A stretch of DNA of 64,000 nt from Vermamoeba vermiformis (taxonomy: Eukaryota). The position numbers and the translations under genes were made by a program. The notes below the pieces were generated by a model. It was given only the letters and a program-made list of their open reading frames with translations. It was not told the origin of the DNA and did no database searches. Position 1 is the stretch's first letter; each line of letters starts with the position of its first letter. The DNA is taken from positions 186,001 to 250,000 of the forward strand of contig JBEWZL010000253.1 of NCBI GenBank assembly GCA_045837725.1, written 5' to 3'. Of this stretch, positions 1-50,284 are shown piece by piece.

Positions 1-778
1 AATTCAAGCCCAGCTACGGCACCACACTCGTCACGGCCTGGGCCGAGGTGCACGGCTTTCCGATCGGCATCATCGCTAACAACGGGGTAAGTGGCGGGTG
101 TCGCGGTGGTGGTGCTATTTATAGCTGCAGACTGACACGCGTCACAGGTGATCTTCCCCGACACGGCGAACAAGGCCACGCAGTTCATCGAGATCTGCGA
201 GCGCCGCGTGATTCCGCTGCTGTATCTGCACAACATCACGGGGTTCATGGTGGGCAAGAAGTACGAGCACGAGGGCATCATCAAGCACGGCAGCAAGATG
301 ATCAACGCCGTCTCCAACTGCGAGCTGCCAGCGATCAGCATCATCATGGGGGCCTCGTACGGTGCAGGCAATTACGCCATGTGCGGCAGAGCTTACAACC
401 CGCGCTTCTTGTTCACGTGGCCCAACTCCAAGGTCGCAGTCATGGGTACGTAGCTGCAGTCACGTGCTGCACACTGCACATTATTGACACGTGTTATTTG
501 CAGGTTCGGATCAGCTGGCAGGTGTGATGGTGACCATTCAGCGCGATGCAGCGGAGAAGTCAGGCCGCAAGTTCAATGAAGAGGCTGCAGCACAGATGAG
601 CAAGATGTTCAAAGACAAAGTGGACAGTGAGACCACAGCCTATTACTGCACGAGCAGAATGATCGATGACGGCATTGTTGATCCACGTCAGACACGTGAC
701 ATCTTGGGTCTGTGCTTGTCGGTCATTTACACCAATGAGATCAAGCCGAGCGGCAGATATGGTCTGCATCGCATGTAG
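1..778 (+). CDS. Acyl-CoA carboxylase carboxyltransferase (beta) subunit, MCCase/geranyl-CoA carboxylase type; 3' part
   Basis: Exons <1-86, 148-~447, ~504-778 with GT-AG introns. Motifs [42 protein letters not shown]. Confidence 0.9.
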
Positions 779-1523
779 TTATCTGTATAGTAGTGTGTTT
801 GGAGCTAAGCTTGTGTTGGAAATAAAGACAGAGTTCAAACAGTATGAAATTCTAGTCTTTTAGTTGTTTTCATGAGCTGAGAAACTATGCTGCCTGCTGC
901 TGACGTGCTGTCCATTGGATGAATCCAGGCTCCACCATATGCCATCCATGGAGGTTCTTCTCAACAACATAGTAATTTCTTCTTGGTGGCCATTGAAATA
1001 CTGCAATTTTTGGTGGCACTCTTGAGATTCTTGGGGTATCAGGAGGGTTTTTGGATCGCTGAAAGAAGAATGGTATGAAGATTTTGAGCCTGTCCATGAC
1101 TGCACCAGCGACCCAAGCTACTGTGGCATTAGAAGGCTTTGGGCTAAACGCGAGAGGCTGAAAATGGCAATGTTCTGTAAAGAACTTAAGTACTAGAACT
1201 TTGTTCTATTGGCTGCAATACCATTGAAACTTTGGAATCACCTAGATCTATCACTATCTAACAAGAAAATATAAGTAATCATCAAAAATATTGTAGTGGC
1301 AGCAATTTGTAAATTTTCAGCATTAAGTATGAACCCACCCACCAGCACATGTTTGGTACAACACAACTATACGTATTTTATGCAACCCTGAACTTTGGCT
1401 ACAATGCATTGTCACCTGCCTATGAAAAAAAAATTGAATCATCTATACTTTTTTATGTTGTAACTTTGTCCAGTAGGGTGGCAAACCTTGTTATAATGAA
1501 AGGATATGCTTAATCATATACTT

Positions 1524-1697
1524 GGCATATAGAAATCTTGTTAAAATCTTCATACTATATGATGTATGGTCGGCGGACATGTGGTCCGTGGTGGACGTCC
1601 AATTTTTGCCGGACAGGCGTCCGCCAAATGTACGTGGCATAGAAATCTTATTACAGTCCATATGATGTATGGTTGGCAGATGTTTGGTCAGTGGTTG
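1524..1697. repeat. Degenerate direct duplication of about 65 bp in a CpG-poor non-coding tract
   Basis: ggcat(at)agaaatctt...atatgatgtatggt[c/t]ggc[g/a]ga at ~1524-1594 and ~1636-1697. Confidence 0.7.
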
Positions 1698-2934
1698 TAA
1701 TTACAAGCCGGACATGTCTGGGCTGGCATTTTGGCCTTGCCTCACAACAATTGGCCATCCTCCAGTGGGTTTGAATGGACAGCGTTCAGTTTAGGGTTAG
1801 GTGCCAATGAACGGAATAACCCAATTCTGCAGTTATGAACGCAATTGGAAATCTTTCAGCGGTGTTGGAACTGATCAGTTCTTCACAGAACATTTTTGTA
1901 CGGCCAGGATTCTGACAATGAAAACATGAAACTTCAACGAACTCATGATTAAACGTCAGGATTAGCCTTTCCAATATGCTCAAATGGGGTCAGAGGTCAG
2001 CTAGCATATGGTGAGCGGACGTCTGCCTTGGACAGGGTGTCTGCTGACCTTAGGTTTTCTTTGACAGTTGCAGCAATGTATAGATTATTGTATTATTGAA
2101 TATTTCTGCTACAACCACGTATCTGCGAGTCTTGGACTTAAGGAAGCTGGAAAAAGTGCACTCATCTCAGAACTTATCATCTGAAGGCCTCCCTGCTCCA
2201 AAAGGTTACAAATGACTACAATTAGTAGCGTGTGATAATCGAGAACGTCGTTACAGTGAACTTGAAATCTGGTGTGGAGAATCCCGGCACAAAAAGGCAG
2301 CCAGGTGCTGGATACACAATATTTTGATTAAGGACTGAAATTCTTTTCTTAGGTGCTGCCTTGGTTTGAAGGGGTGGCCTGAAGAAGGTGGTGGAGCGAT
2401 GTTAGCGACTGACTAAGAACATTCCGTTTGGGCGCGGTTGCAACAGCGCAGAGGAGCACAATGCCATTCCAATGAACTATTTGCTGCAGGACTATTGAGC
2501 CCAAGCGAAATGCCAAGATCAGAAGTGACGGCAGTTTGGCTGGAAAGTACGGCCAAAAATCTGCCGAAACTGCTTAAGAGTGTCATCTGCGAGCTCCAAC
2601 GAATGCTTTGTAACCATCGATTATGGGATATCATAACATATTCTCTCTATCGTTGTAAATGCGAAGTTCCACAAACGGTCTGATCGCTGATCACGAAAAA
2701 TTTAAATTTTTTTAAAAGGTTTAGGGCTCTTTTTTTACCCCCCCCCCCGTTGTTTTTCTTTTATTTTTTTTTTTTTTTTTTTTTTGGAAAAGCCCCCCCC
2801 CCAAAAATAAAAACCCAAATAATCTATCGAAAAGATAAGTCCAGAATTCTTTGCCTCATTTTGTTCCGTGTTGTAATGAAACAACACAAGTGTAAATATA
2901 ATTGTAAATCTTTGTATATTATTATTCATTCATT

Positions 2935-4043
2935 ATGGATCCTCAACGTTTAGCAGAAATCAAAGCTAAATTGCTGGATGAGTGCGATAAACCATCGGTA
3001 AGATCCTTGAAAAAAATTCAATAATTATTCGGCACATTATTTCATATTCCTGAAGCAATATCTGCTATTAAAATAGCGATGAAGGATTATTTATTATTTC
3101 TGTAATATTTATCAGATCTGATCGTTTTAACAGGGCTCAACACAAGCACAACTCGAACAAGCACTGCCAGGTGTATCATTAGAAGAGCTCGCACTAACAC
3201 TGAACGCTGCTCTCAAAGAGAATCGTTTGACGGTGCTCGCCAACGCCAAGGATTCGTTCTACAAAACAGTGCCGCTCGACGAGTTCGAAAAGTAAGTGCC
3301 TATGCCAGGCCTATGCGCGCAACTAACTGAGCTCGCACGCGCAGATTGAAAGGACTGACCCCCGAGCAGCTGGTCGTGTACAGACTGGTCGAGCAAGTGC
3401 AGCGCGAGGGGATCTGGGCCAAACACTTGCGCGCCAAGAGCAGCTTGCCGCAGCCCTCGTTCTTGAAGGCGATCAAAGTGCTGGAGAGCAAGAAGTTGAT
3501 CAAGGCCTTCAAGTCCGTGACGGCCAAGAACAAGCGGTACTACATCCAGTACAACCTCGAGCCCGCGAGTCAGCACATTGGCGACATCTGGTACAATGCC
3601 GATCTCGACTTTGACAGCGAGTTCGTGGAGGTGATCACGCGCCAGTGCTATCAGTTCATACAGCACAAGGGCTACGCGTCGCTCGATGACTTGCAGCTGC
3701 ACATCACGCAGAGCGGTATCTCGACGATCGAGATCAAAAAAGAACACATTCAGAAGCTCGTCGACACGCTCGAGTACGACGGCAAGGTCGAGGCATTCAT
3801 TCCCACCGCCAGGAAATCTCCGCTCGGGGATGGCACGCTCTACCGACCCACGCGCATTCGTGTGCCTGACAATGGCCTCACTGCGACACCGTGTGGCACC
3901 TGTCCGGTACGGGGGAATTACCATATTTGGTCATGTGCACTTTGTACTCACTGCGCTATTTATAGGTGTTCGAACTGTGTTCGGATGACGGAGAAATTTC
4001 ACCAGCCAAATGTATTTATATTGCTGAGTGGCTAGAATTTTGA
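2935..4043 (+). CDS. POLR3F: RNA polymerase III subunit RPC6 (C34/C39)
   Basis: 4 exons (introns 2998-3133, 3292-3344, 3907-3965). Motifs GIW, LESKKLIKAFKSV, LVDTLEYDGKVE and C-terminal PCGTCPV..C..SPAKC Fe-S cysteines. Confidence 0.93.
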
Positions 4044-4149
4044 TTTGTTGATAAAAATAGAATTGCCTAATATAGTAAGTGCATCGCGGCTATCTCAGGG
4101 GTATTTATTCAAAATTGTTTAACTGTACAAAAAAAATAAGCGCAAAGAC

Positions 4150-5716
4150 TTATTTGCTGGTGGAATACACCACTGGTGCTCGCTTAGGATTGGCTGCCAG
4201 TGTTGGTGCAGGATTCGAATTGACAGGTGTCACATTGGATGTCGCACTGTTGTGGAATGGAGTGGACTGATACGACACGACACTCGGTGTGACAGGTGTC
4301 ACATTATTGGACTGCAGAGGTGTAGACTGATACGGCACGACACTCGGTGTGACAGGTGTCATATTCGGTGTCGCACTGAGAGTGGGACTGTTGGTGCGCA
4401 ATTGCACGCTGTTCGAGGTCGGAATCAGCTGGTAATTCGTGCCCGGATCTGCGCGTCGCTTGGTCATGCCAGGGGACAGCGCCACTTTGGGTGCGGAGTC
4501 AGTGGCACTGCGCGGTGGCATGGGTCCGAACATGTCTGGTGTGCGCGGCACGGGGGCAGTCACCACGCCGAGGGGCTGGGTGGGGCCTGTGTTGAGCTGC
4601 TGCGTGCCAGTGTAGGGCAGCACCGAGGGCGCGGCATTGGTCACCGTGCCAGTGTAGGGCAGCACCGAGGGCGCGGCATTGGTCACCGTGCCAGTGTAGG
4701 GCAGCACCGAGGGCGCGACAGAAGGTTGTGGCCGTGGTGTGAGTGCCGAGTGGGATGGACTGGTAGCTGTTCTCCAAGCGACGTTTGGGCGCGAGACTCG
4801 GTGAGCTGGCCGGGCCCGAGCTGAAGTCAGTGCTGAGCGTGGTGGTGCGATACTGCTCGGGATTGATGGCGCGACGTGAACTGCCCAGCTCGAACATCCA
4901 GCCACGTGTCGTGGAGTGGCGCGCATTGGGCCGCACTGTTTGACTCGTCCAGCCTGTGGCACTCGCTGCTTGTCTCTCTGCGGCGTCGTTGTGCTGCGTG
5001 TAGTACTCCTGCACGGGGTACTGTGCAGTGGAGGCGGTGTTAGCGTTCTGCGCGTAGGGCTCAGGCACGGGTTGATACTCGGGGGTGTCGCGCAGATTCG
5101 GTACGCTAAACGGACGTTTGTTGGTGGAGTTTGGTGACGATGAATATAATGCCTTCTTTTGGTTTTCTTCAAGACAAATATGAGCAAGTTATTCTTATCG
5201 CCAGACTGACAAGATCATACAGAAAGAAAAATTGATCAAAAAAAATAATATTGATTTTGGGATTTGTTTGTTGTCTAATCTAGTACAGTCGAGCTGTATG
5301 ATGCGTATTTATGCGAGAGACGTACCATCGGGAGTTAATTGACTGACTGACTCGTCTATAAATTCTACAACATCGCCAAGGTCTTGTACGACTCTCTTTA
5401 ACTAATCAAACTATTAATATGGTGATGCAATATACATGCAGCACATCGGTGAGTACTGAGAGTACAAAGTAGCATCTAGAACATTGGTAAAAATCATTCT
5501 TACCTGCGGGATCTGAGGCCCCTCTTCGAGAGCATATGTTTGCAAAAATGACAATTTCGCTCGCACTTCATGAATAAAGTTCAACCACTGCTTTAAATCA
5601 AATCTGTATTGTTCCTCAGGGGCAACAAATGGATTGTCTGTAAAATCCAGCTGGTGTTGAGCTTCATCGTGATCGACGTAATTGACGTCGAAATAAGGAG
5701 CAGGTGGAGAACTCAT
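4150..5716 (-). CDS. Uncharacterised protein with a Pro/Ser/Thr-rich repetitive C-terminus; model uncertain, with apparent frameshift(s)
   Basis: ATG 5716 (MSSPPAPYFDVNY), donor near 5503. The PEPYAQNAN frame (5068) switches to the PSVLPYTGT repeat frame near 4750. Stop at 4150. Confidence 0.5.
4265..4360. repeat. 60-bp coding duplication (NVTPVTPSVV.YQSTP)
   Basis: gactgatacg.cacgacactcggtgtgacaggtgtca at 4265 and 4325. Confidence 0.85.
4604..4717. repeat. 42-bp perfect tandem repeat, about 2.7 copies (APSVLPYTGTVTNA)
   Basis: gtgccagtgtagggcagcaccgagggcgcggcattggtcacc at 4604 and 4646, partial copy at 4688. Confidence 0.92.
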
Positions 5717-6180
5717 AATCGTGGTGCTGTGGATCCAAAAAGTGCGTGCAGTGACTTCGAGGAATGAAAACAAAAAAGTAACGTGTCAAGATGTCAAAAT
5801 CGTCTCCGCGTGACATTCGGTTGGGAAGACTCTGAGAAAATGTCCAACTTCTGGAATTGCGCAAATACGAATGGGACTTCTGTTCACTATGCCTGGCTCA
5901 ATTTAGGCCGCGTTTGAGAACATATTTGGCGCAAGATCCGATTTGAAAGGAAATTTAATTTATTGCTTGGCAATTTCGATAGTTGTCGGCACCGACAATG
6001 TACAAATATGGCCACGAGAGTATTAAACAACTAGCTGACACTAATCTAACGAATGTAATGCAACCAGATTCTTAGTGAATCAATTCACATAATTAATTTA
6101 ATTTTAATTTAATTGATATTACTAGCAATATTATTAAGTGCCTATTCACTGAAACCTGACCATTCAACAAGCGCAGTTCG

Positions 6181-8409
6181 TTAATAGGAGAATATCTGGC
6201 CCCACCACTGATTCACAATCACATACAGCCCATTCGTGCGCAAATCCTTCGCCGAACGATAATACGTGATGCCTAAATATGGTCAATAAACACGCCTCCA
6301 CGCAGTACTCCGCAGCGTACCTGAGAAGAGTTCCGTGACCGGAATGGTGTCGTTGCCATTGACAGGTGTCGCATCACTCAAGATGACACGTCCCTCGCCC
6401 TGCGTGTCGCTGTAGTTCAGCACCACCACGCGCTTGTGTGCACTCGAGCTCCAGGTCCACGCCATCAAGCGCCACGCCGTGCTGGCACCAAACACGTTCT
6501 GATACCGCCACTGTCCTTGGAACACCTCGTGCGCGGTGATGGCCGTCAACTGCGCGTACATCTGTTGCACGGCACTCACGGCACTCTCGGGGGCTGCGCG
6601 TCTGTGGGGGGCACCTGTCAGTGTCACGTGTCACAGAGGGGTGCATTACCTTAAATGGACATCGAGTTTGTTGTGATAGCCCTCGCGCTGGCCCTGGAAG
6701 TAGAAGCGCATGCCTGGCAGCGTCATGGTCACCAGGGCTGCTGCGTCTGCGCGCCAGTTACTGCCAAAAAAGGAAGCGGCACGTGGCTCATCATGATTCT
6801 CCACAACTAGCTCGGAGATTAGTGCTATTTTTAGCTTTGCCAGTGACTTACAGCGCGCAGTGTGGTGGTGGTAGTCGATGGACAGGCCGGAGATGTAGCC
6901 GCGAATGTCATCGAGATTGCCTGCTGCCAAGCGATCGTACCTGCAAAGATGATGACACATGTCAAATAATTTGCTGCATGCAGTGACAGGTGTCACTTAC
7001 AGTGTCTTGTCGTAGGTGAAGTCAAAGCCATTGTTTTGCAACTCTTGCTATAAATGGGTATGGATTAGCGGACATTGCCTAATTAGGACAAGAAGCGTAC
7101 CGTCCAAGGATCGTAGACCTCCGCGAGAAATTTCACTTGCGGATACTGTTGCTTGACCTGCTGAATGGCACTGCGCCAGAACTCGCTGCTGGGCTGCGCA
7201 TAGCCCCAAGTGCCGAGTGTCCAGGCCCAGTTCGTGCTGATCTGCGAGTTGAGCAACAAGAACGCCATGTCGCAGCGAATGTAGTCTGCAAAGGATGCTA
7301 TTTTTAGCAGCACGTTGACTTGGTGCTTCACGAAATCAGGACTAAAGATGGTGTGAGTTACTCCGCTGATCTATTTTTAGCTACGTACTTCCAGTAGTTG
7401 AACTGTGCAGTGTCCCTAGTGAAATTTCACAGTCAGCGCGTGTTTCAAACATCAGTCACGTGATGTACAGCAAGTTACGTACGTCCAAGGCTGGCCCCAA
7501 CCAGGGCTGCCGAATGCAATGCCATTGGGCAAGTACTTGTTCGCGTCGTACGGCGGATTGGTGCCACGTGGTGCGCGCACGTACCTGCAAATGACACGTG
7601 TCAAATAATCGTACCTCCTCAAAGCCACAGCTTACCACTCCAAGTGCTGCGTCCAGTTGGAGTCGACAGCGGAGTGATTGGGCACAAAGTCGAGCATCAG
7701 CTGCAGTCCCACGCCGTGCAATGTCGTGCGCAGGCTGCTCAGATCTGCGTCGCTGCCCAACTCGCTGTTCGTCGTGTACTCGGTCACTGCGTAGGGGGAG
7801 CCTGCGCCTCTGTTAGCACATATAGTAATATAATATGTAATAATGATTAGGGAGGCAGTTTCAAGTACCGATAATGAGTAGGGAGGCATACCGATAATGT
7901 CAGCCATGGTGTAGCCTGGCAAGATCTGCGCGTAGGATTGCAACAAGCCTGGATCAGTGCGATCATGATTGAGTCCGTACTTGCCTATTAATACGTATCA
8001 TGAATCAATTACGAGTACTACAAGTAGGGTCCAGTCGTTGCACTGCGACAAACTAAGGTGTAACCATTTAATTTCCGCCTAGTGCAATCAACTTGGTCTG
8101 AAATTGCATGGGAATAGCACTAACAACGCATTTGAAAATTAAATACTACTAACCAAGCTGCCAGACACCCATCATCCACACAACGTCAAATCCAGAGCTC
8201 TTGATCGCTTTGAACTCTTGAAGGGGAATGTCTCTGAGACGCGAGATATTATAGCCATATTTTTGCGACAGTCCGTACAGCCAAGGACGAGTCGATATCT
8301 CGAACATGAGTGGGAACCGCACTGAGCCAGATTGACTTGCCTTGCTTGTCACTTGCACCGCGAGAAATGCCACAGCTAATAAGACGAGCACAGCTTTCAA
8401 GGTGTTCAT
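6181..8409 (-). CDS. Secreted alpha-amylase family (GH13) glycoside hydrolase, bacterial-like subfamily
   Basis: Signal peptide MNTLKAVLVLLAVAFLA. Motifs VWMMGVW, LMLDFVPNH, catalytic IRCDMA, FLAEVY, (spliced) FVENHDEPR. About 10 exons. Confidence 0.88.
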
Positions 8410-9358
8410 ATTTGTCACCGCTAGTGTCGTGCTTCAATGCTGATCAGATTCTAGAATGAATTGTTCAGCAGACATTTCAAAGTAGTTCTCTACCAGGGCC
8501 AGAAGTGCGTCCTACCGTGCTCATTGGACGGCCAAGAAATAGGTGTAATCCCCTTGCTAACTGCGTACCACCTCTCGAAATGCAGCACTGTCGTTTCAAT
8601 ATTGACTAATAGTGGATACTTAAGTCTGCAGCATTCGACTATTATAGAGGCTAGCAAACCTAAGCTGATCCAGCCAATTAATTCGAACCAGTTCTTCCTC
8701 ATTCGGCATCGGCCCGATAATTTTTGTTTATCCAACCATATTAGGCAACGCTCGGCCATTAATTCGGAAATTCTTCTCGCTCTCCCGCACAACATTCAAT
8801 AACACGAACACAACGGCTAGCAAGTAGCTCAATTCTAGTGGGGTTCAATCGACATATACCGCACCCCCGCCGTGGAACTTACAGCTGCAGCTCAATAATT
8901 ACAACCGCAGCAAAGATCTTCTTTAACAACTGTTAGCGTAGAATACTTTAACAGTGTGCTTAAAATAATCGCTTGGTATTTATCCTCAGACGGCAAGTTC
9001 ACCGAGTGAACAGATGAAGCCAGAAATTTTCAAGGTAAGAGTTCATGTCACCCTCGAAGATTACACGACCTACGATTCATTCTAAATTGTACATTGTTGT
9101 ACCGCAAGATCTGCATTTTTTTTTTTTTTTTGTGCAACTTACAAGTATTTTTTGTGCAAGAAAAAAAATTCACAAAACAGAAGTGCTTTTCGCCGTGATG
9201 TAACGTCAATTCAGTATTTCGTTCTTGACTAGCACCACGACTGTACATATTTGTATTAATAGTCCCTCGTTGCAGGATTTTCCAAGCACATCTGGAAACT
9301 GTCAACAAGCTGTAAAATAGTTTAATTGGACTTAAGGGAAGTCGACGACAAAACTGAA

Positions 9359-12300: not shown

Positions 12301-13523
12301 TGCTTGGTGTGCAGTGGCATGTGCAACTGTGCGCGCTGCATGCGCAACAGATCTGAAGACTCGAACAACTTGCAGCTCAAATTCGACGATCCAGAACTCA
12401 GTGGCGACAAGGTACCACGTGACTTCTCGTCTAATTATAGCGCTAATCTCGCCCTTGCAGATTGTGGTGCCCAACTTCCTCAAAGAGAACAGCAAGGCAC
12501 GTGGTTCCATCTACGATCGCGAGCCTCGGCCCCGCGCCACCTCGGAGAAAGAGCGCCGCGCCATCTCCTCGCCCAATCTGCTCATCTCGTACCGCACCAA
12601 GCCCGCCATCTCTGATCGCTTGGCCTCACTCTCGCACGCCAAGGGCTCGCCGAGTGGCACTGGCAAAGCGTACCGCACGCGCTCCAAGGGCGATTTGACG
12701 GTGATTCTGAACGACAGCGACAGCGAGGTGGGCAACAACGACAACGACTACCAGGGCTGGTATCCGAGTGAGACCTCGTCCGTGGCCTCCAACGACTCGG
12801 CACGTGATCGCAGATCTGGTCGCCTCTCCACCACCCTCGATCTGACCGATGAACTCGACAGCGACAGCACCGATGAGAGTCGCAGTCCGACACCGCGGAG
12901 ATCGTTCCGAGCTCGCAAGCGCGGCAGTCGCACACTGGAGGGCGAGGAGATTGGGCCCGAGATCGTGATTCTGACGCCCTTCGCTGACTCGCAAGTGCCT
13001 GCTTCACCCTCCAGTTCACGCAAGCGCGCGCGATTGGGCAGCGGTAAGTCACGTGATTTGTTGCCAGTGTCAGTGCGTGACAGTTCTATTTTTAGTCGAC
13101 GAAGAGAACATCGAGGAGGTCGCGGCAGTGTTGCACTCGATACGCGATGTGACACCCACGCGTCAACGTGTCAAACAGGATGCCATGCAAATCGATGCCA
13201 GCGACGAGCCAGTATCTCCGATGAAGAGATTCAAGAGTGACAGCACACTGCTGCCAGGGCCAGTGAGTCACGTGGCGGTGCATCAACCAGGGCCCTCAGG
13301 CTCGGGCGAGTTGATCTCGCTGTTGAATCAGTTCAAAGAGTTGCAACCGCCCTCGGGCAATCACAATTGGCCTAATTTGGCAACTCCTTTCGGTGCACCA
13401 GTGCCACCACACATCATGTCACGTGACCCGTTCTTGAACAGCGGCAAAGAGAGTCCTTCGCCGCCCCCGACCACCAATGGCGAGCATCACGTGGACTTGC
13501 CGCCGTTCAAGAACTTGAATTGA
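9359..13523 (+). CDS. JmjC-like (degenerate) plus zinc-finger chromatin protein with zf-4CXXC_R1; CbfA/KDM3-like
   Basis: JmjC-type VPIVVRG and QQEGDLVLLP. Finger CAFC..CFHCARC..DICLQC. Finger CHQC..C..CSKRFCGYCL..WKCLVCSGMCNCARC. Disordered C-terminus. Confidence 0.75.
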
Positions 13524-13882
13524 ACGCAACACGCTGTTTGACAGCTGTCAACGACCACACCACCTGTAAAATTGAACGCCAAGGACATCGACATGTACAT
13601 AGCCATATATAGCACTCATATTGCGCGAATTCACCTCTTTTTAGTGACACAGCGCGTACCAGCAGCAGATCTTGTATTATTATCGTAGCTTGTTTTGTTG
13701 TGTCTGCACTCGTACTGCGCGCAAAGTATTTTGAAGTAGTTAGTAAATACCTGTAAATAAATGTTATTGCAATACCTCTCGCGTATTAAGCGCAGTACTT
13801 CGCGCCAAATAATCCGCCAAATGTTGCCGCCATTTTCAGATGTATTATTCAAATTGGATGCAACACCACCATAGCCATTAAC

Positions 13883-16869: not shown

Positions 16870-16967
16870 TTGCCTTATTTGGCAAGTGTTCTCGATGTAC
16901 AGCGGAATTATGAATGTAAATTAGCAATGGACTTTACCTATTTCGTCTTTTATTCCTAATTTGGACA

Positions 16968-18084: not shown

Positions 18085-18201
18085 ATTGATTGATATTAAT
18101 ATACAGTTGTGGTTGCACTTGTCGGCAGCTGTTAACAACTGAATCCGCTCTTCATCTCAACATTTTATTTTTCACGCGACCGATTAACAACAGCTAGTCT
18201 A

Positions 18202-18773: not shown

Positions 18774-18950
18774 TACTGCTAGTAGAACATTATGTTAATA
18801 AACACCAGTTATGTACAAAGAGGTTTATTGCAGGTCACATCCGCTACAAAACTGCTCAATCTGAGCTACGATGGCAACAAACTGCAAGTAATGACAATGA
18901 GGTGATAAACGAAGACTACTAAAGAGATATATACAAGCTGGCAATCAGCG

Positions 18951-38445: not shown

Positions 38446-41400
38446 TTAGTGTTTGTCAGCGAGCTTTTCATCGCTGAAGGGGTATCTGCTAATGTAGTAG
38501 CCGAGGGCCCAGATCGGGAAGATGTTCTTGTAGCCGCTGTAGCTGATCGCGCAGCTGAAGTTGAACACACCCGAGATGCCTTGTTGACGCCAGTCTCCGT
38601 TGCCTTCTTGTTCGCGGATCAGTGACTCAATGCCGCGCTTGACAGCAGCCTTGTGTTCAGGGTAAGCAGCCACCATCAGGGCGTGCACAGCCCACGCGGT
38701 GTTGACGACGTGCGACTCTTTGTATTGCACGTATCGGCGCTCGTAACACGACTGCCGCAATCAGTTAGTCCTGCAACACGGTGCACACTCATCGCAGTAC
38801 GTACTCTGAAGTCTTCACCCCAGCCACCGTCTTCCTTCTGTTTGGACAACAAGAAGTCGCAGGCCTTGCGCACAGTCTCGCAGCGCTCTTGACCGGCCTC
38901 GCACAGTGCAATGATGCCGAACCACGCTGCGTAAGTGTAGCACACACCCCAACTGCCGTGCCAGCTGCCGTCTGGTCGTTGAACCTTCTTCAAGTACTCG
39001 CAGCCACGTTCAAGTGCTTTGCTGCACATCAAAGACTATTAGCATTTGAAAGCACTTGCTATGACCGGCCATGAACTTACTGAATCTCGCCAGATCTGTG
39101 AGCCGGGTAGTACTTGCGGAAGAGCAACAAGGTGCGAATGGCAGCAGAACTGCACTCGCAGTACGAGTAGTCGACCATGATGCCATCGAAGCACTCAGCA
39201 GGGTTCAAGTTCTCCAACCAAGCACCAGAGCGCATCAACTCGTACGAGGGCCAGCCACCGTCGTCATTCTGCAACGAGAGCAAGACATTGACTGCGTCGT
39301 ACAAGAGGTTGTCGGGCAGACCGTTGCCGATGACGTCGCCGTACTCGAACTTGAAGCGCAATGCAGTGCGCAGACCTTCAGCTGTGCAATCAGCAATGGG
39401 CCAGCCGTGATCTCTGTTAGAGAAGGGCCAAGCACCCTTGGAGATGTGACGGTAGTATTTGTCCATGTTGGGCGAGTTGTCCAACACTTGGGAGATTTGA
39501 ATGTAGTGTTCACCGAGCTTCATCATCTCGGGGAATTCGCGTGCGAGACCAGTGTCCATGATACCCTGCAACGAGAACGCTGTGTCCCACAATTGACTGC
39601 CGTTGTAGCCCTGGTAGATGACACGTGTCAATCATCGAATGACACGCGAATGCATCGCATCGACACGTACCTGCATCTTCATGCCGTCAGCAGCGAGCCA
39701 CAAGTAGTCCTTCAAGCGCTCGACGTGTTGTTGGAATGCGTCGCTCTTGCCGCCAGTTGCGTAGTACTCGCACAACATGTCCATGCACTTGTTGACCTGT
39801 CAAAAAGCAATGTCAGACATATACGTGAGTAGTCGCTCATAGTAGTGACGCACAGGACCGATGTCAATGTAATGAGTCTGCTCATCCTCGTAGCGAATGT
39901 GGTCCAGTGTCTCAGCCACGGATGATTTGCGCCAGAAAGGAATGGGGCACTTGTCGTAGAGCTTGCACAGACCTGATCACGCGATTAATGGCAGCACTAC
40001 AACAGCTAGTATACAACAGCTGCTATTAATTCGAGGAAATACGTACCAAAGACGACCTTCAAGATGGTCGAGGCAGGTCTGTATTTGTCTTGCGGATTGG
40101 TGTACCAGCGAATTGAAGGCCAGTTGATTTGTTCGTAAGGAGTGGTGTAGACTTCCTATTATGACATTGCATTGTTAGACGAGGGATTAATATGCACCAC
40201 TATTCTATTCTCATTAGACATACCTCTCTGATCTCCTTAATCAACGGAGTAATTTTACCAGTGCTCTTAGTGCCGTAGATGTAAGCCATAGGCAAGTAGA
40301 TCTGCATTGAATGACGAGTGAGTACGCGGCGTAGCGTGCATAGTACGTGGAATAATTAATATGGAATGCAACTTACGACACGGCAATGGCACCAGAAACG
40401 ACCAGGGTGGAAAGGCAACCAGTAAGGCAAGGACCTGCAATACGATCATGATTAGTTTCGTCATCAGTGCATAGGAATAACAAATTAGTATTGTTTAATA
40501 TTATATTAGTTGTTAATATTGGACACGCACCATAATTCGGGCAAGACAGCGTTAACACCTTCCCATTCCATGAGACCGAGTGTTGCCATCCAGAATTTGC
40601 CCCAATGAGGAATGCCCAACATGCCACCTAGTATTCAGGGTTAGTGCCTAATACAATAATCGATGCTATTCGAGAGCGGATCTAGTTCAGAAAATCATTC
40701 ACCGAAGAATTAACGAACAATCGGATTAAACGCAAAAACAATACAATAAGATAAATAGCGTATTAATAATAAATTAACGAAATTGCGACACGTACCGTTG
40801 CGTTGGATCCAGCTACGAGCCTTGACAAGACGAGGATCGTCTTTAGGAACACCCAACAGGCGCATAGTAACGTAGTTCATTCCTGAACCGAACATAGTTG
40901 ATTCAGATTCAATATGCCTATTAGTTGAGCAGCATTAATACTCGCCGTTGCAAAAATATCTTGGATCGGTCAATTAAATTGAAATTCGCTCAGTCATTTA
41001 AAGTAATGGTTCTAATAATATAACTATAAATTATAATAAAATACTTACAAGCCCCAACCTCCATCTTCGCGTTGACAATTGGACAAGTAACGGATCATTT
41101 CAATTCTAACTTCTTCAGCGATAGGAACACCAGTAATATAGCAAGTAATGACCATGCCTATTAGGCGGTAGAATAACCGTTGTTAGGAACATTATTGTTA
41201 CGGGAACTTGCGATCTTACCGGGCATCAAGAAGAGAGGACCGCCATAATCATTAGCCCAATGACCGTCTTCAGTTTGCAATTTCTCGTAAAATTTAATGG
41301 CATTTCTAGTGGCTTCTTCAACACTCTTAGGCTTGGGATATGGAGGGGCGTCTTTGCTCTGTTGGACAGATCAGATCGTAGTCCCGATCAAGCCAAGCAG

Positions 41401-42941: not shown

Positions 42942-44638
42942 ATGAGGATCGTACGCCATGTTATATATTTATTTATCATATATACCCTATTATCAAATTG
43001 TACAGTAACCGCTGACGACACACCCAAGAAGTTTTTACGTTTTAACCCAGATGGCACGTTCAAGATATTGCAAGTGAGTAATAAAATATTTTTGATATTT
43101 AATAATCGTTTTCCATCGTACGCGTGACTAGTACAGACGGTGGAACAATTTAATGTTAATTAAATTAAATATTTTATTTTCTAGTTCACGGATCTGCACT
43201 ACGGAGAAAATGACGCGTGGGACGAACAAACGGAGTTATTACAAGAGGAAATTTTAAATGCAGAAAAACCGGATCTTGTTGTAATCACTGGCGACATGAT
43301 TTCAGGTTACGCTTATCGAGGTGCGTAATGTAATAGTAGCTAGCTATTGCCGGGCATAATATTGCTGCAAATATTTCAGTTGCTGACGTCATCGATCAGG
43401 CGGCAGTGAGTGGGTGAAGGGGCACTATGAGAAGCTGTTGCGACCCATGATCAAGCTCGGCTATCGCTGGGCCATGGTGCTCGGCAATCACGACGGCGAG
43501 GCTGACTGGCACCGCGCTAAAATCGCTGAATTTGACGCAGGCCACGCACTCAGCTTGACACAGATTGGGCCTGAGAACATCACTGGTGTCACCAACTTTG
43601 TGTATTCGATCTACTCGTCCAAATCACTCGGTAGGTGTTCAACTGCACTTTCTTAATGCAAGCGTGCAATGCTGACCAGGTGTGGCAGGTGAGATCTCAG
43701 CGCGCTTGTACTTCTTTGACTCGAATGCGGTCTCGTGTTTTGGTGTCAAGGGCTGGGGCTGCGTGTACCCCACACAAGTAAGAGCGTGATATATGATAGA
43801 TAGTTGCTAGTATAGCATACGAATTGAAGATTTTATCGTTTCCGCAAGTCGCTGATTGACGCGCCAATGTTCACAGATCGAGTGGTATCGTCGTACCGCA
43901 CAAATGTTCAAGCAACAAGACGGACATCACGCCAAGCCAGCCATGGCCTTTCAACACATCCCTATTCCCGAGTACATGGAGCTGTGGAACTATCATATGA
44001 CTTACGGTACATTGCAAGACGAAGGTAGGCTGATGAGTGCCACACTCGTGAGAGCCAGACTTTGACACGTGTCACTAGGTATTTGTTGTGCAGCCCTCAA
44101 CACAGGTCTCTACGCGGCCATGAAAGAAATGAATGATATCAAAGCACTGTGGGTCGGACACGATCACAAGAATGACTTCTACGGTGATTTTTACGGCATC
44201 ACACTGGGCTACGGACGCAAGACTGGTTATGGCGGCTATGGACCAGCCATTGGTGGGTGACAATAGACTGCAAAAGTAGACAGCATTTGACCTTTGATGT
44301 AGGTACCGCGCGTGGTGCACGAGTGATCATATTGAAAGAAGAGCCATTCAGCTACGAGACCTACATTCGCGAAGAGGGCGGTGGCGTGGACAAACAAGGC
44401 GCGCACAATGCAGGCTATCCGCACTACTACACGTGCTGCTCGAAGGGAGATCGTAAGTGGACCATTGTCTTTGGATGTGCAGCACTCACACCACACAGGC
44501 TATTGGGTCGTATTGAATCGCACCGTGGTGATCACATTGACCATCACAGTCATGTTCTGGTGGATTGTGATGGGTGCAGTCATGATCTTCATTTCAAAGC
44601 GAAAGAAGAACAAGATGAAGAGTGCCAAGTCAATATGA
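42942..44638 (+). CDS. Calcineurin-like metallophosphoesterase (PAP29/DCR2-like) with signal peptide and C-terminal TM
   Basis: FKILQFTDLHYGE, TGDMISG, GNHD, FQHIPIPE, GHDHKND, YGRKTGYGGY. Confidence 0.9.
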
Positions 44639-45780: not shown

Positions 45781-47112
45781 ATGGGCAATAAGCCAAACAA
45801 AGCGGCCAACCACAACTCTCGCAGTGAGCCCGAAACACAGGTCTTAACTACCGTTGATAAAAGCCAAATGAATAATACAGAGGCTTGGCACGTATTAATA
45901 GTTGCTAATGCAGGTATTTAATAAATGAATTACGGTAAATTAAAACTAATTTAATTCAGCTGCAATACGAAAGTGGTTATCGCAGCAAAAAGACATTACC
46001 AAAGCTTTAACTACCGAGGTTCTAAATCAACAAACAGCGATGCAGCTCATTGTTGGAGGAAGAGCTAATCCATCGTCCGAAGCGATCATAGAATCACTGG
46101 AAGTCTTAATCGAGCATGGAGCGGACGTTAATTATATTCCTCCGAAAGGTGAGGGAAAAATTCGTTGTATATTCGTTCCTAACGTGTTGCCAGGCTCCGA
46201 ATCACGAAGATTGATGCGCGATCCAGTGCCGTACTTGGCAGCGATCCATTGCGAGCCTGCAGTGGTTCAATTTCTGTCCGAACAAGGGGCTGATTTTCGC
46301 ATAGCACATCCCGACATGCCTCAGCGCACTGTCCAGAATCAGTGCAGCTTCATCAATGCATTTACACTGCAAAAACTGCTCGATCCAGCAGCCCATCAGC
46401 AGCACGTGTCATTCAAGCAGACCAATCACCCTGCTAATTATAACCACGACCTCGCGTTGATGAAGTTAGATTGGGTGCACTTCATCAGCGACGGTCAACT
46501 GAAGTCAACGCTGCTCAACGTGCTGCAATCACGTGTCATCACTGCATTCAAAGTTGAGCCCGAGAATAGGACCAACGAACAATATGCGACCAATCAGAAG
46601 ACGGAGATCACTTTTGAATTGCAAATGAATTCTTCAGACGCAACATTGACACCTGTCACTCTCAGTTACTCGTCGGATATCTCTTGCAATGGCTCTGAGA
46701 GGTTCGAATTGGAGCTGACCATGTCACGTGGTGATGAACGAGTTTCGGTGAAATTAACACATGATCTTAATGCATTTATTGGTACGTATACACTGGTAGA
46801 CTAGCCACCAATTCTTATCCGAGCAACATGTTAGGCAATGACCTGGTCCCTTCCCGTAGTGCAGAAGGGTTCGACGGATTTGTGAAAAGTTTGGGTGATG
46901 CATTGCACGCACAAAAATCTCCAGATCTGGGCTACTTGTTCATTCTGCTGCTGTTGTGCCATGTGGATGACAACACACTAGTGCGCAAACAGGGCTGGCA
47001 GTCCAATCGCAGTCGCGTGTTGAGACCTGCCATATTAGGCGCGCTGTCCATTCCTCCCATTGTGGCACAGCTCGCCCGCGATTGGGCACTAGTGCAAGAT
47101 CTAAATGCGTGA
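45781..47112 (+). CDS. N-myristoylation-motif protein with ankyrin-like repeats
   Basis: MGNKPNK start. LEVLIEHGADVNY and VVQFLSEQGADF. Confidence 0.65.
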
Positions 47113-47396: not shown

Positions 47397-48731
47397 CTAA
47401 TCGTTTGTGATTAACATGGCAGCAGGCTGGGTATCTAGACCAAGATTGAGCGTTTGTTGGTAGACAAGTGCCGCAGTATCGATATTAAACCCAGCCAAAA
47501 TGAAATTGGAGTTATCAACCGAGAACCACAGCGAATAAACTGTCCTCGTTGTGCTGTCAAAAGTTAAAGACGGGTCTTTGCCTGCCCAAGTGAGTGGCTT
47601 CGTTGAGCTGATGACGGACTTGCACTTGCCATCCATGCCCAGTGCGCAAAATGCCGTAGAAGGTAACTGACGAAAGTGTCAAACATTTCAATAATGAAAT
47701 ATGGCTCACTTACCGGGATCGTCCCAGTAGAACAGAAAAGGTTGTCCATTGTTAGGATCAAAAAAGATTCGCGAGCGTGTGTTGATGTCTCCGCAGGATT
47801 TGACTTGCTGCTCATTGTAGGGATCCGAGAGAGACACCTAACAGACAGTTAATAAGAGTTTACAATAGCGCAATGGCGTTAGTACTCTGTGCAAATGCAT
47901 GTAATTAAATGTCGCATTGACGAGTTGATCGGTCACCCAGTAGAATAACTGATTGGCCACATCGAACCCGAAGTTAAGTGGTGCAGTGCCATCTTGAAGC
48001 GAGCTGAACGTTCTGATGACTGTTATAGACGTCAATATAGCATTACGAGAGTTAATAATTCGGAGATCCTACCCGTGACGTTCGGCGGCGAGTGGTCTCT
48101 CGGTCCTTCCACCGACAGAAGCTCGATGCCCTTGGGACCATAGCCTGCTACCACGGCCACTGCAATAGTACGATGATTAAGACAAATTATTCGCACAATA
48201 TAAGATTCAAATCAAATTAATAGCATCAAGCGTACCAATGAGGCGATCGTTCTTGTCATCGTATTGCATGCTGAAAATTAAATTAGCAAAAGTTTTCAGA
48301 CGCGAATTAAAATACTCACAAAAAAGCTCTTTTCTTTGGAAAGGTCCAAAAAGGTAGTGATACTTGGTTGACGATGTCTCCTCGATAAATTCTGCTGGAC
48401 CCACCGCTTCCGTAGAAAATATTATTTTCTTGGTCTAGCCCTGCCACATTGTATGTGGTAGCATAGCTATCGAAGGGGTGTTAATGATATTTCCGCTCAG
48501 CATAACAAACTTACTTAGCAATATATGGATCTGGGCCGAATTCAAATTCTGGAAATAGCCCAGAGGCAGAATTGTAGCTAATTAATTGCCATCCCACTTC
48601 CTTCAAATCTCCAGCAAATAGTTGGAAGTTTTGAGCGAAGGCCTGGAAAGAAGTTAGATTTAATTTTCCTTGTAGCCGAACTGTACCAGATGAGCGAAAG
48701 TCGCAATCACTAAAATTAAATAAAATTTCAT
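47397..48731 (-). CDS. Secreted protein, possibly beta-propeller-like
   Basis: Signal MKFYLILVIATFAHLAFA. Repeated blade-like segments LDQENNIFY, YDDKNDRL, FDVANQLFY, FDSTTRTVY. Confidence 0.6.
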
Positions 48732-48974
48732 TGGCAATGCTACTTTGGTTGCGTACATGTGTGCGGGCTATTTGTACAAATAAACGGTTGCCGAAAAGTG
48801 CACCGATTTGTACAACCGGCGGGCGAAATTACCTCGGAAAGTTTTTCGTATAAATTTCTGTACTATTGGAATTTCATCCTAGGATGAGTACTTACGTAAT
48901 ATCCCTGCGAGTGTAGTTGCCTAAGACCGCCTTATCCGATTTTCGTGGTACCAATGCATAATAATATGACGCTG

Positions 48975-50284
48975 TTAATGAAACCACAAGTGATGTGCCC
49001 AGTCGTGTTTGAACGAGTTCTCTAATTCACTGAATTGATGCACCCTGCTGCTCGTCGCGTTGAATAGCAACAGCGCCAGTCTGAAAGTGCTCTGATCGGA
49101 CCAGCGATGCGTCACGAGTCCATTCATTGCCAAAATATAGTCTGCGTAGTGTTGATAGGCAGCAGATCTGAACCAGTTGACGCGACCCACTTGAAATGCA
49201 CCGTGGAATACGGAATTGTTGAGTGCGCGGCGCTCAGCGGGTGTAATGTGCAGACAATCTAGGTAGTGCAGAGTCTCTTGCAGGGCCACGCACTGCTGAG
49301 GGTCATTGCTCTCTGAGTAGACATTAATACTAGGAACGGACGTATAGCTGCATGACTTACGCGTAATGTAACCGTAGAGCAAGTTGTTGTCGTGCAGGTA
49401 TTGGATCGGATCTGGTTCAATTTCTTTGATCGGATACATGTCCGAGTCAATTGAAAGATAGTAGTCGAACTCTTTCATCAGCGGGTGGTCCCACAGGCCT
49501 AACAATAGAAAGTTGTTAGTTGGAAGGCCAGTTGACCTAGTGTTACCTTTGATGCGCCAGTAGTTCATGAACACGTAGTTCATTGAATGCAACGAGTATT
49601 GCTGCAAATTTGACATGCACCGCACGTAGGCGTCAGGGTCTACCACGTGATTGGCAAAGAACTCTTGTTTGACACGTGTCACATCACTGAACACGACGTT
49701 TTGTTCGACAGTCGCGCGATTCAGCCAGTCAATGTCACTGCGCGAGACAGTCTCGTCGTAGAACACTATGACCGAGTAGTCGTGGCGGTGATTATAATAG
49801 CGCCATATGTCCTGCAGGTGATAGTACAGCTCTTTCACATACGATCTAAACCACGGCGTGTTTTTTTCGTTGACGAGCAGATAGACAATCACTCCGCGAG
49901 GTTTCGAGTGCGCATTGGTCGATATGTTAGGTATAATAGCCTCGTATGGCGTTATTTTGCGCAGCTCGGTGCAGTTGGGTGGGACAATGACGGGGAGTTC
50001 GCGGATGTAGGCTAGATATCTCTGCCTTCGCACTTCTGATACCAAAGATTATTGCCACGATTTTTTTAGGTTTATTTTAAATTAAAGTGAAGATAAAAAA
50101 TAAAGATTTGAATTTTTTGGTGGATCTGACGCTGCCAAACGCACCTGCCAAGGGAAAAAATTTTAAAAAGTCAATTACCTCGATATTCTATTAATTTGGG
50201 GAAGCTGACAATCCACAGTATTGTGGCAACTACACAAAAGCCTAATATTCCGTGCAGCACTCTTCTGCTGCGTGCAATCGCCAT
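48975..50284 (-). CDS. GT15 (KRE2/MNT1-like) glycosyltransferase, type II membrane protein
   Basis: N-terminal TM. YVFMNYW, LWDHPLMKEFDYYLSIDSD, WFRSAAY, HRWSDQ. Confidence 0.75.

Follow-up and report, generated by a model that had tools for sequence, protein, structure and literature searches.

A 12-bp palindrome in large excess within genes of one region of the Vermamoeba vermiformis genome

The window analysed here, a 64,000-nt stretch of Vermamoeba vermiformis DNA (contig JBEWZL010000253.1, positions 186,001 to 250,000, forward strand), carries genes for an S/T/P-rich protein, APC5, an aminotransferase and a Ktr-type mannosyltransferase, and contains the palindrome TGACANNTGTCA in 24 exact copies. 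Dinucleotide shuffles gave an expectation of 0.22, an approximately 100-fold excess that none of 100 shuffles reached, and Markov simulations of order 1, 3 and 5 yielded means of 0.05, 0.18 and 0.83 copies (maximum 4, 40 simulations). The original prediction had counted about 24 by eye; every copy that it named is among ours, together with those at 4290 and 4350. Its description of the spacer as nearly always CG, GG/CC or GC applies to 23 of the 24 copies (CG 12, GG/CC 9, GC 2, CA 1), and its claim that copies occur both in introns and in coding exons agrees with our division into 13 copies in 12 short introns, ten in coding exons and one in a 3′ UTR. Intron and exon assignments combine RNA joints with our own gene models; most calls rest on our gene finder, which recovered the short introns confirmed by RNA. 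Splicing of three motif introns is shown by RNA joints. The copies, and the introns that contain them, are as follows.

4221–4232: copy, sense TGACACCTGTCA, in the coding tandem repeat of the S/T/P-rich protein (minus strand); encodes VTPV
4290–4301: copy in the tandem coding repeat of 4221, VTPVT; not independent of 4350
4350–4361: copy in the same tandem coding repeat as 4221 and 4290, MTPVT
6941–7000, minus: predicted intron, 60 nt, no RNA joint shown, two copies; 6984–6995 directly follows GTAAG, and 6953–6964 (spacer CA/TG) places a branch-like A 21 nt short of the 3′ end
7585–7635, minus: RNA-confirmed intron, 51 nt, joint 7581>7633 (cut +3) in X22, X24 and X5; copy 7592–7603 then TTTGCAG; no YTRAY candidate other than motif TTGAC, whose A is 16 nt from the end
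11096–11150, plus: RNA-confirmed intron, 55 nt, joint 11094>11150 (X5); copy 11120–11131 mid-intron, separate CTGAC downstream
11412–11470, plus: RNA-confirmed intron, 59 nt, joint 11408>11468 (cut +3, X5); copy 11452–11463 then TTTGCAG, the only branch candidate; GCTATTTTTAGC also present
13539–13550: copy, spacer GC, 16 nt past the stop of the ORF ending at 13523
14629–14640: exonic copy, APC5, RDTCQ; a weak Apc5_N match stops just before it
15778–15789: exonic copy, APC5, SDTCQ (own gene model), inside a cluster of seven CACGTG in about 215 nt, all three frames used
16097–16108: exonic copy, APC5, IDTCH, where a TPR unit begins (TPR_7, exon residues 30–62)
16502–16513: exonic copy, APC5, VTRVR; frame predicted only
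19311–19363, minus: predicted intron, 53 nt, aminotransferase gene; X5 record 12 ends at 19309; copy 19316–19327 then AACAG
19629–19681, minus: predicted intron, 53 nt; copy 19636–19647 then TTTGCAG
19848–19908, minus: predicted intron, 61 nt; copy 19876–19887 mid-intron, separate CTGAC downstream
22837–22897, plus: intron, predicted only, 61 nt; copy 22875–22886, A 20 nt from the 3′ end
23005–23016: intronic copy, spacer GC, predicted only, 10 nt past the GTACGC donor at 22995; predicted as intronic with either of the candidate acceptors
23733–23789, plus: predicted intron, 57 nt; X24 joint 23730>23790 with two stray letters between; copy 23748–23759 close to the 5′ end, separate CTGAC near the 3′ end
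31307–31318: exonic copy, VTGVN, predicted exon 31144–31464; sole copy with GG spacer on the sense strand
39611–39670, minus: predicted intron, 60 nt; copy 39619–39630 with no rival branch candidate, its A lying 17 nt short of the end
44025–44093, plus: predicted intron, 69 nt; copy 44063–44074 supplies the sole YTRAY, its A lying 28 nt before the intron end
46647–46658: exonic copy, LTPVT, in a 284-aa open frame
49670–49681: exonic copy, DVTRVK, mannosyltransferase ORF, minus strand

Three of the ten coding copies fall in a single tandem coding repeat within a 354-aa ORF, where an unbroken RNA contig (X5 record 9) spans 4151–4675. The copies at 4290 and 4350 have 30 nt of flank in common and that at 4221 lies in the same diverged repeat, so that about 22 copies are independent. 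The APC5 gene (ANAPC5 domain, E 5.8e-10) holds four, and the copy at 13539 is probably in a 3′ UTR because it lies inside a transcript contig (X5 record 11, piece 13095–13699). In our gene models the recurring peptides noticed earlier are indeed encoded, namely DTC (14629, 15778, 16097), TRV (16502, 49670) and TPV (4221, 4290, 4350, 46647).

Only the 2-bp spacer is enriched, as other inverted spacings from 0 to 12 gave 0–1 copies each, and a survey of every 5-mer inverted repeat with a gap of 0–6 singled out only the 12-mer and its own sub-word. Information in the flanks does not exceed 0.36 bit per position, and positions −1 and +1 are complementary in just 3 of 22 independent copies; a palindrome that ends at 12 bp, between nearly uninformative flanks, indicates that the recognised unit is the 12 bp and not a hairpin stem. 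All 24 cores are E-boxes (CANNTG): CACGTG in 12, CAGGTG/CACCTG in 9, CAGCTG in 2 and CACATG in 1. Predicted exons contain nine copies, versus 0.29 under synonymous-codon shuffling (largest value 2 in 300 shuffles) and 0.02 under codon-order shuffling, and 54 CACGTG versus 16.8 under synonymous-codon shuffling. The suggestion of a DNA-level word overlaid on the coding sequence thus survives both amino-acid-preserving and Markov shuffles.

The inverted-repeat form of the 12-mer would suit the remnant of a mobile element, a miniature transposon or a member of an intron-creating introner family, with its terminal inverted repeats lying side by side. Introner elements and MITE-derived introns (Micromonas, Aureococcus, dinoflagellates, fungi) are likewise short introns with a repeated inverted-repeat sequence, and a few copies here have short extra flanks in common: AACAG[C/G]GTG[C/T]T at 11120, 13539 and 19316, and TTTGCAG at 7592, 11452 and 19636. 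The best intron pair (11412 and 39611) also scored 21 against a null maximum of 16. However, the flanks are otherwise unrelated, the remaining intron pairs match in the 12-mer plus about six bases at most (scores ≤18), and pairwise comparison of the motif introns found no whole-intron similarity. Because flanks are uninformative and introns are alike only in the word plus at most nine further bases, the 12-mer is not a fragment of a longer dispersed repeat, the outcome that would have undone the original prediction. Unlike introners, all three aminotransferase introns occupy identical positions in a related lineage, and exon insertions are lacking here. At the mannosyltransferase site 49670, the one exonic site that could be compared with homologues, VTRV in the window aligns with VSRV and ITSV with no indel, so the copy replaces residues and adds none, which argues for substitution over insertion. 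No target-site duplications are visible in the flanks of the copies. A mobile-element remnant is accordingly very improbable, being largely refuted by the unrelated flanks, the conserved intron positions and the lack of exonic insertion.

The palindrome had been described as saturating gene bodies, which overstates its reach: the first 24 kb holds 19 of the 24 copies (binomial P 5e-5), and genes past 50 kb in the 64-kb window have none, the last copy ending at 49,681. Long AT-rich introns of the window are also free of it, as had been noticed for AT-rich first introns, and about 31 kb of intergenic, UTR and long-intron sequence contains one or two copies once predicted introns are reassigned. 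This regional, non-uniform enrichment had gone unremarked, as had three other palindromes with a like distribution, CACGTG, CC(A/T)6GG and CTA(A/T)4TAG. Free CACGTG follows the same regional and gene-body pattern (87 versus 13.2 expected, 6.6-fold), and its exonic excess is limited to genes at 9–25 kb (APC5, 17 versus 3.3). One of the four palindromes is present in 21 of 34 short introns before 25 kb versus 0 of 13 past 50 kb.

Density is highest in short introns, at 2.7 copies per kb versus 0.30 in exons. The original prediction overlooked that copies in introns have an orientation and a position like those of branch sites, with TTGACAC on the sense strand 14–28 nt upstream of the 3′ splice site. 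The base directly before the motif is T in 11 of the 13 copies within introns and in 3 of the 11 in exons or the UTR (Fisher P 0.011), and the candidate branch A is within 21 nt of the 3′ end in 7 of 12 copies (P 0.017, uniform placement null). Among 72 listed short introns, ten bear the motif, and in seven of these motif TTGAC is the sole YTRAY 6–40 nt from the 3′ end; other introns of the set have CTGAC, CTAAC or CTAAT. Five of the 13 intronic copies are excluded as branch sites, two by lying at the 5′ end and three by another CTGAC downstream. A sense-strand spacer bias (CC 6 versus GG 1, tandem copies merged) is not significant (P 0.125).

These properties, together with the conservation described below, are as expected of branch-site use, and raise the possibility of an RNA-level splicing element in which the whole 12-mer is a branch site joined to a segment that pairs either with this site or with the region of the 5′ splice site, and exonic copies are incidental. 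Base pairing between the motif and a GUACGUGUC / GUCACGUGUC sequence at the 5′ end links the two ends of the intron in two of 11 motif introns (19311–19363, z −2.41, and 39611–39670). Composite signals of this type do exist: the available text on Trichomonas introns describes a fused branch-site/3′ splice-site word, ACTAACACAYAG (PMC13548475). Like that word, also found in Giardia, the motif is a fixed word before the 3′ splice site in which the branch site is followed by AC, and seven introns here read TTGACAC, then 4–9 nt, then YAG. In those organisms, however, almost all introns contain the word, which lacks palindromic symmetry, whereas here the motif is in 10 of 72 short introns and also in exons. 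Single-strand RNA readers do not select self-complementary words, the palindrome ends at 12 bp, and motif introns fold no more stably than shuffles (mean z about −0.2, 1 of 11 below −2). A splicing element would also leave unexplained the co-enriched exonic CACGTG and a 30-fold exonic excess over synonymous shuffles, as branch-like words in exons would be expected to be neutral or harmful. We consider this explanation unlikely.

The related lineage keeps a one-mismatch version of the 12-mer at two of three orthologous aminotransferase intron sites, reading TGACGCGTGTCAAACAG where intron 19311–19363 has its copy and TGACGCGTGTCATTTGCAG where intron 19629–19681 has its copy; its 47-nt ortholog of intron 19848–19908 lacks the motif. 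The block TGACnCGTGTCA and the 3′ splice site are kept in two of the three introns, and outside them intron 19311–19363 has diverged. As the last ~17 nt of the motif-free intron 17631–17691 are also conserved, such conservation beside the 3′ splice site is no peculiarity of motif introns. Both kept sites are imperfect (TGACGCGTGTCA), with the E-box and one TGACA half-site broken and TGAC intact, a pattern better accounted for by branch-site constraint than by a conserved protein site.

In both sites the difference between window and relative falls at the same position (A versus G), and this could instead reflect a motif-directed drive, in which sequence-specific repair, nuclease-and-repair or biased gene conversion perfects near-matches to the 12-mer and CACGTG, and the word spreads as a by-product where constraint permits, without serving the cell. 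Perfect copies outnumber all one-mismatch variants together (24 versus 13), introns and all three codon frames are affected alike, and the excess is strongly regional, like recombination-dependent processes. In the aminotransferase exons, three CACGTG in the window are not in the relative, each differing by two to three coordinated synonymous changes (xCC CGC G versus xCA CGT G), and none reverse, as all four of the relative's CACGTG in this gene are present in the window too. Over-represented words are familiar from bacteria (Chi, uptake sequences, the CCWGG excess from very-short-patch repair), where they also lie inside genes in any reading frame, and C. elegans PATC signals similarly gather in the introns of genes that belong to certain chromosomal domains. 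Unlike these, the present word is a perfect palindrome in a eukaryote, and the specific loss of one-step neighbours that repair would cause was not found: ATG/CAT are generally deficient (0.64), which accounts for the depletion of CATGTG/CACATG (0.22), and a maximal-order model does not place CATG with the lowest tetramers. The word avoids intergenic DNA and the long AT-rich introns, which are just as unconstrained, and the comparison of window and relative is a two-way one that gives differences rather than a direction of change. We know of no eukaryotic description of such a drive, and a literature search found none. It has, in our view, a modest chance of being correct, slightly better than that of the splicing element.

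We favour, with somewhat less than even confidence, the explanation that the word is maintained within gene bodies as a double-stranded target of a dimeric protein, its intronic copies doubling as branch sites. The 12 bp can be read as an E-box core (CA-SS-TG) between TGA and TCA, or as two inverted TGACA half-sites 2 bp apart, a geometry recognised by dimeric DNA-binding proteins of TALE-homeodomain or bHLH/bZIP type. The site would be kept base-perfect in the GC-richer transcribed parts (exons and short introns) of one chromosomal domain, its copies having presumably arisen by point substitution rather than mobile-element insertion. The surplus of perfect copies over one-mismatch variants speaks for this reading too, as a sign of exactness, and so do the window-only CACGTG of the aminotransferase exons, as a sign of pressure at the DNA level on coding sequence. 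In introns, the left half (sense UUGACAC) may have a second use as the branch site, with the A of TGAC as the probable branch A, which would account for the orientation of these copies and their distance from the 3′ splice site.

bHLH and bZIP proteins may read TGA...TCA-type flanks, and their E-box and G-box sites (CANNTG; CACGTG) share the core of all 24 copies; because CACGTG is also the commonest core, a reader of this type is as good a fit as a TALE protein. The sites here differ in their fixed TGA...TCA flanks, which match no standard E-box flank known to us, and in their gene-body location. The likeness to TALE dimer sites (TGIF1, MEIS, PKNOX) put forward in the original prediction holds as a statement about sequence: these also have inverted TGACA half-sites with a 2-bp G/C spacer and often A/T just outside. 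In the available text of the two studies, the crystal structure of TGIF1 has two monomers bound to a palindromic 16-mer containing TGACAGCTGTCA (PMC6158717) and the SELEX motif of MEIS3 is TGACAGGTGTCA (PMC5449588); the GC and GG/CC forms (11 of 24) are letter-identical to these, whereas the commonest form here, with a CG spacer (12 of 24), is absent from that text. TALE sites also differ in being regulatory DNA, whereas the present copies occupy exons and short introns at about 100 times expectation. That a protein reads the 12-mer is our inference, and we would guess that a bound site in gene bodies acts not as a promoter element but as a chromatin or transcription-coupled mark. Promoters are where transcription-factor sites would normally lie, and the near-emptiness of the ~31 kb of intergenic, UTR and long-intron sequence therefore weakens the protein-site reading.

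The excess of the 12-mer in the genes of this amoeba is not fully explained by any known mechanism. In run X1, motif sites coincide with the ends or starts of DNA contigs whose continuations are unrelated, which suggests that there are many more copies elsewhere.

The palindrome TGACA-NN-TGTCA (the 12-mer, TGACANNTGTCA) occurs 24 times in the window, against 0.22 expected from dinucleotide shuffles (0 of 100 reached 24) and 0.05, 0.18 and 0.83 under Markov models of order 1, 3 and 5 (maximum 4 in 40). Chance or composition is excluded as the source of this count. By definition all 24 copies carry two inverted TGACA half-sites 2 bp apart; enrichment is absent at every other spacing between 0 and 12 bp, and a survey of every 5-mer inverted repeat (gap 0–6) shows nothing else that stands out. 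The spacer is CG in 12 copies, GG/CC in 9, GC in 2 and CA in 1, giving a central E-box (CANNTG) that reads CACGTG in 12, CAGGTG/CACCTG in 9, CAGCTG in 2 and CACATG in 1; a 6 to 1 sense-strand bias of the CC spacer is not significant. One-mismatch variants, all kinds summed, number 13. Four of these have the direct-repeat form TGTCAC[C/G]TGTCA (6622, 12128, 15903 and 16530) and the 9-mer CAC[G/C]TGTCA is found alone about 15 times, so that a half-site plus its E-box half may be an independent unit.

The boundary of the 12-mer is sharp. About 22 copies are independent, those at 4221, 4290 and 4350 belonging to one diverged tandem coding repeat. The original prediction had named, as the outcome that would count against it, that the copies are pieces of a longer dispersed repeat; instead, no position beyond the core has more than 0.36 bit of information (22 copies, 44 half-sites) and the introns are unalike beyond the core. 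The -1/+1 bases are complementary in just 3 of 22 copies. When 74 short introns were aligned all against all, the top local score was 21, compared with 12 for the core alone and a null maximum of 16, and short flanks (AACAG.GTG.T and TTTGCAG) are common to a few sub-groups of copies. A longer repeat, introner or MITE family is rejected, as likeness is limited to a short core and does not run along a whole element.

The window carries densely packed eukaryotic genes interrupted by spliceosomal introns. Its ORFs match Rpc34, a Ktr-type mannosyltransferase, a class I/II aminotransferase, an F-box protein, a D-Ala-D-Ala dipeptidase, TenA/THI-4 and a thiamine-phosphate synthase/thiazole kinase fusion. 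The last ORF shares 85% identity with a protein labelled Vermamoeba vermiformis in EukProt, deduced from a transcript, and 98% with a contig protein; the source is accordingly an amoebozoan akin to that Vermamoeba strain yet distinct from it. No Rfam RNA family was found within the window. RNA reads and contigs of four sequencing runs, aligned to 4001–24000, gave joints that include the following.

Introns with RNA joints
7585–7635, spliced short intron with one 12-mer
11096–11150, spliced short intron with one 12-mer
11412–11470, spliced short intron with one 12-mer
7416–7482, spliced short intron, motif-free
12412–12460, spliced short intron, motif-free
17631–17691, spliced short intron, motif-free
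23606–23656, spliced short intron, motif-free
9658–10104, spliced long AT-rich intron
10231–10508, spliced long AT-rich intron
10654–10802, spliced long AT-rich intron

The remaining introns, and with them most of the gene structure, were predicted by our own gene finder (codon usage plus splice sites), which recovered the RNA-confirmed short introns. One gene, 9658–12460, has two intron classes: the first three introns (447, 278 and 149 nt) are AT-rich and palindrome-free, and the later ones are 49–59 nt long and contain CACGTG or the 12-mer. In a serine/threonine/proline-rich coding gene on the minus strand, a perfect 42-nt tandem repeat spans 4603–4717 (2.7 copies, 100% match); RNA reads of another strain stop at 4262 and 4301 in this gene, which suggests that repeat number differs between strains.

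On the RNA joints and predicted models together, 12 short introns together hold 13 copies of the 12-mer, coding exons hold 10, and the last copy sits directly past a stop codon inside a transcript contig (3'UTR); these are not promoter or enhancer locations. Density is highest in short introns.

Copies of the 12-mer by compartment, after filtering
Exons, 29.6 kb: 9 copies, 0.30 per kb
Short introns, 3.4 kb: 9 copies, 2.66 per kb
Remainder, 31 kb: 6 copies, 0.19 per kb (4 of the 6 are in predicted introns or a repeat exon removed by the filter)

After reassignment, other non-coding DNA (about 31 kb) holds 1–2 copies. An intron-only mononucleotide shuffle expects 0.008 copies in 72 introns, where 11 are found.

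The proposal that the word is overlaid on coding sequence holds when the amino-acid sequence is preserved: predicted exons contain 9 copies, against 0.29 under synonymous-codon shuffling (maximum 2 in 300). Shuffling codon order yields an expectation of 0.02; because the synonymous expectation is higher, the encoded protein sequence on its own already favours the word. The 12-mer influences the choice of codons as well as of amino acids, something unusual in a eukaryote. Four exonic copies (14629, 15778, 16097 and 16502) fall in a gene identified as APC5 by an ANAPC5 domain (E 5.8e-10) and by TPR matches in the copy-bearing exons; a search among longer proteins found no homologue of the APC5 exon. 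The copy at 49670, in the mannosyltransferase gene, encodes DVTRVK, which is also present in a 95%-identical strain protein (P0121). In more distant homologues VTRV aligns without gaps to VSRV and ITSV, so this copy arose by substitution within existing codons, and an insertion origin of exonic copies is rejected at the one testable site. The structure-database alignment of this protein covers residues 185–342 only, and the motif residues lie outside it. A predicted 48-nt intron in the same gene (49313–49360) is in frame and stop-free, so the ORF runs through it.

In geometry, all 24 copies have the half-sites of a TALE-homeodomain dimer site, and all 24 likewise have the CANNTG core of a bHLH site; unlike TALE sites in promoter or enhancer DNA, they sit in exons and introns. 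Two published papers give homeodomain dimer sites identical to the word, from a TGIF1 crystal (PMC6158717) and MEIS3 SELEX (PMC5449588). A literature search with the three 12-mers returned only TALE factors, bacterial parS or regulon sites and unrelated primers. The available text of the CDC-19 genome paper (PMC7125106), supplements aside, reports 3.5 introns per gene in Vermamoeba vermiformis and contains neither 'motif' nor 'palindrom'. Folded as RNA, 11 motif introns have no surplus stability over shuffles (z -2.41 to +1.87, mean about -0.2). Strict dyad symmetry, the sharp 12-bp boundary, the lack of hairpin stability and the identity with these solved or selected sites argue that a dimeric protein would recognize the 12-mer as double-stranded DNA.

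Intronic copies have further properties. Oriented by gene strand, a T precedes the motif in 11 of 13 intronic copies compared with 3 of 11 others (P 0.011), TGACAC is on the sense strand in 11 of 13, and copies are skewed to the intron 3' end (P 0.017). Between 6 and 40 nt from the 3' end, the motif's TTGAC is the sole YTRAY in 7 of 10 motif introns, and its candidate A lies 14–28 nt from that end; in the remaining three a CTGAC lies downstream of the motif. Of 62 motif-free introns, 52 have a YTRAY 7–36 nt from the end, mostly CTGAC, CTAAT or CTAAC. Five intronic copies are not branch sites, two adjoining the 5' splice site and three having CTGAC downstream. UUGACAC could base-pair with U2 at its conserved GUAGUA region and the two preceding bases. 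In Trichomonas the word ACTAACACAYAG is a known example of branch and 3' signals fused into one (PMC13548475); we found nothing in the literature on over-represented palindromic branch-point words in amoeba short introns. At the 5' splice sites of short introns the sequence often continues as GTAAGTCACGTG / GTACGTCACGTG or GTACGTGTCA (for example 13044 and 16562; 19311, 17165, 39611 and 57048 on the minus strand), so that the donor overlaps an E-box or motif half.

Orientation, placement and partial conservation suggest that intronic copies would double as branch sites. A purely RNA-level element could account for these intronic features, yet the module is not confined to introns, 10 copies being exonic, and branch-site use explains neither the exonic excess nor the symmetry; we regard such an element as improbable. 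Since branch-site use alone leaves both unexplained, we favour, tentatively and at somewhat less than even chances, a reading from sequence in which the 12-mer would be a dimer-read DNA site whose intronic copies would also serve in splicing. Such dual use would be a tangible case, open to testing, of a single DNA word acting at two levels.

Using an aminotransferase exon as query, we found a relative as two near-identical metagenome-contig loci (L001/L002), 79–84% identical in DNA to window 17541–21746; the comparison is of one 64-kb window with one relative. All three aminotransferase introns are at identical positions in both loci, so the presence/absence differences that mark introners do not occur among these three. 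The relative has no perfect 12-mer and two copies of a one-mismatch variant: at the 19636 and 19316 sites it reads TGACGCGTGTCA, followed by identical 3' splice-site words. The remainder of intron 19311–19363 is barely alignable, and the intron that corresponds to the 19876 site is shorter in the relative and lacks the word. The relative retains CACGTG at +7 of intron 19311–19363. A motif-free intron, too, keeps its final ~17 nt, so conservation beside the 3' splice site is the rule and by itself no mark of the motif. Because close relatives differ in their preferred variant, the system evolves quickly, which opens comparative tests. That the copies are mobile-element remnants is highly improbable, fitting less well, as does a purely RNA-level element, than dimer recognition with branch-site use or a mutational drive: there is no longer repeat, the introns are present in the relative and the mannosyltransferase copy arose by substitution.

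Three other palindromes are enriched alongside the 12-mer.

Co-enriched palindromes (expected by base composition for CACGTG)
CACGTG: 87 observed, 13.2 expected
CC(A/T)6GG: 33 observed, 2.56 expected; 3921–47039, 28 sites before 24 kb
CTA(A/T)4TAG: 25 observed, 0.64 expected; 115–37617, 22 sites before 24.3 kb

We take CC(A/T)6GG to be the SRF/Mcm1-type CArG form and CTA(A/T)4TAG the MEF2-type form. The A/T-cored words are mostly outside exons and the G/C-cored words are in exons and short introns; the density of CACGTG is 1.82 per kb for exons, 5.6 for short introns and 0.42 for the remaining DNA. Often CC(A/T)6GG lies within TT(G/T)CCTAATTAGGCAA, mostly in introns or other non-coding DNA (for example, 7078, 14763 and 15163), and several CTA(A/T)4TAG coincide with a 3' splice site, as CTATTTTTAG (13086–13095, 16600–16609 and, on the minus strand, 27103–27112). 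Apparent joints 7604>21857 and 11468>14755 in contigs of run X1 are rejected as rearrangements, the contigs coming from other loci; at these points they have ~21 nt in common at a motif, then a CC(A/T)6GG element.

All four words cluster in the first 24 kb and none occurs beyond 50 kb, although short introns of comparable length are present along the whole window. Short introns with at least one of the four words number 21 of 34 before 25 kb, 5 of 25 at 25–50 kb and 0 of 13 beyond. In the palindrome-free part, next to thiamine-salvage genes, the intronless ORF 58188–58928 matches Peptidase_M15 (D-Ala-D-Ala dipeptidase family, E 2.1e-28) and may be of bacterial origin. Exonic CACGTG is in excess only in genes at 9–25 kb, with APC5 extreme (17 versus 3.3 expected); one APC5 exon (15704–15924) has seven in ~215 nt, 24–74 nt apart and in all three codon frames. 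Within the stretch aligned to the relative there are eight CACGTG in the window and four in the relative, all four common to both; three of the window-only sites are exonic, each 2–3 synonymous changes from the relative, whichever lineage changed.

A motif-biased repair or conversion drive would account for perfect copies, coordinated synonymous changes and the regional gradient, but one-step deamination neighbours of the favoured word are not specifically depleted and unconstrained AT-rich DNA is spared; we consider such a drive unlikely. More broadly, and equally doubtful in our estimate, this lineage would possess a system with sequence specificity (a gene-body reader protein or else motif-biased repair/conversion) that rewrites synonymous positions and intron branch regions toward a few perfect palindromes in particular chromosomal domains. 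Transcribed DNA would thereby be supplied with TTGACAC, on one strand or the other, ready for use as a branch site, and this may feed intron evolution. The amoeba palindromes would then parallel, in a eukaryote, the 'genome words' superimposed on coding sequence in bacteria. What calls for explanation is a word like that of a dimeric factor, base-perfect at ~30–100 times expectation in coding sequence and short introns: if read by a protein, it would amount to a DNA code within gene bodies, and this in an amoeba of importance as a major host for giant viruses and intracellular bacteria; if made by repair or conversion bias, it would be a new kind of mutational drive.

A signature of very-short-patch-type repair is rejected, the deficit of CATGTG/CACATG being part of a general ATG/CAT deficit. 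ATG/CAT stands at 0.64 of expectation at 4000–25000 and 0.79 in the rest of the window, and CATG at 4000–25000 is at 0.37 of its first-order expectation.
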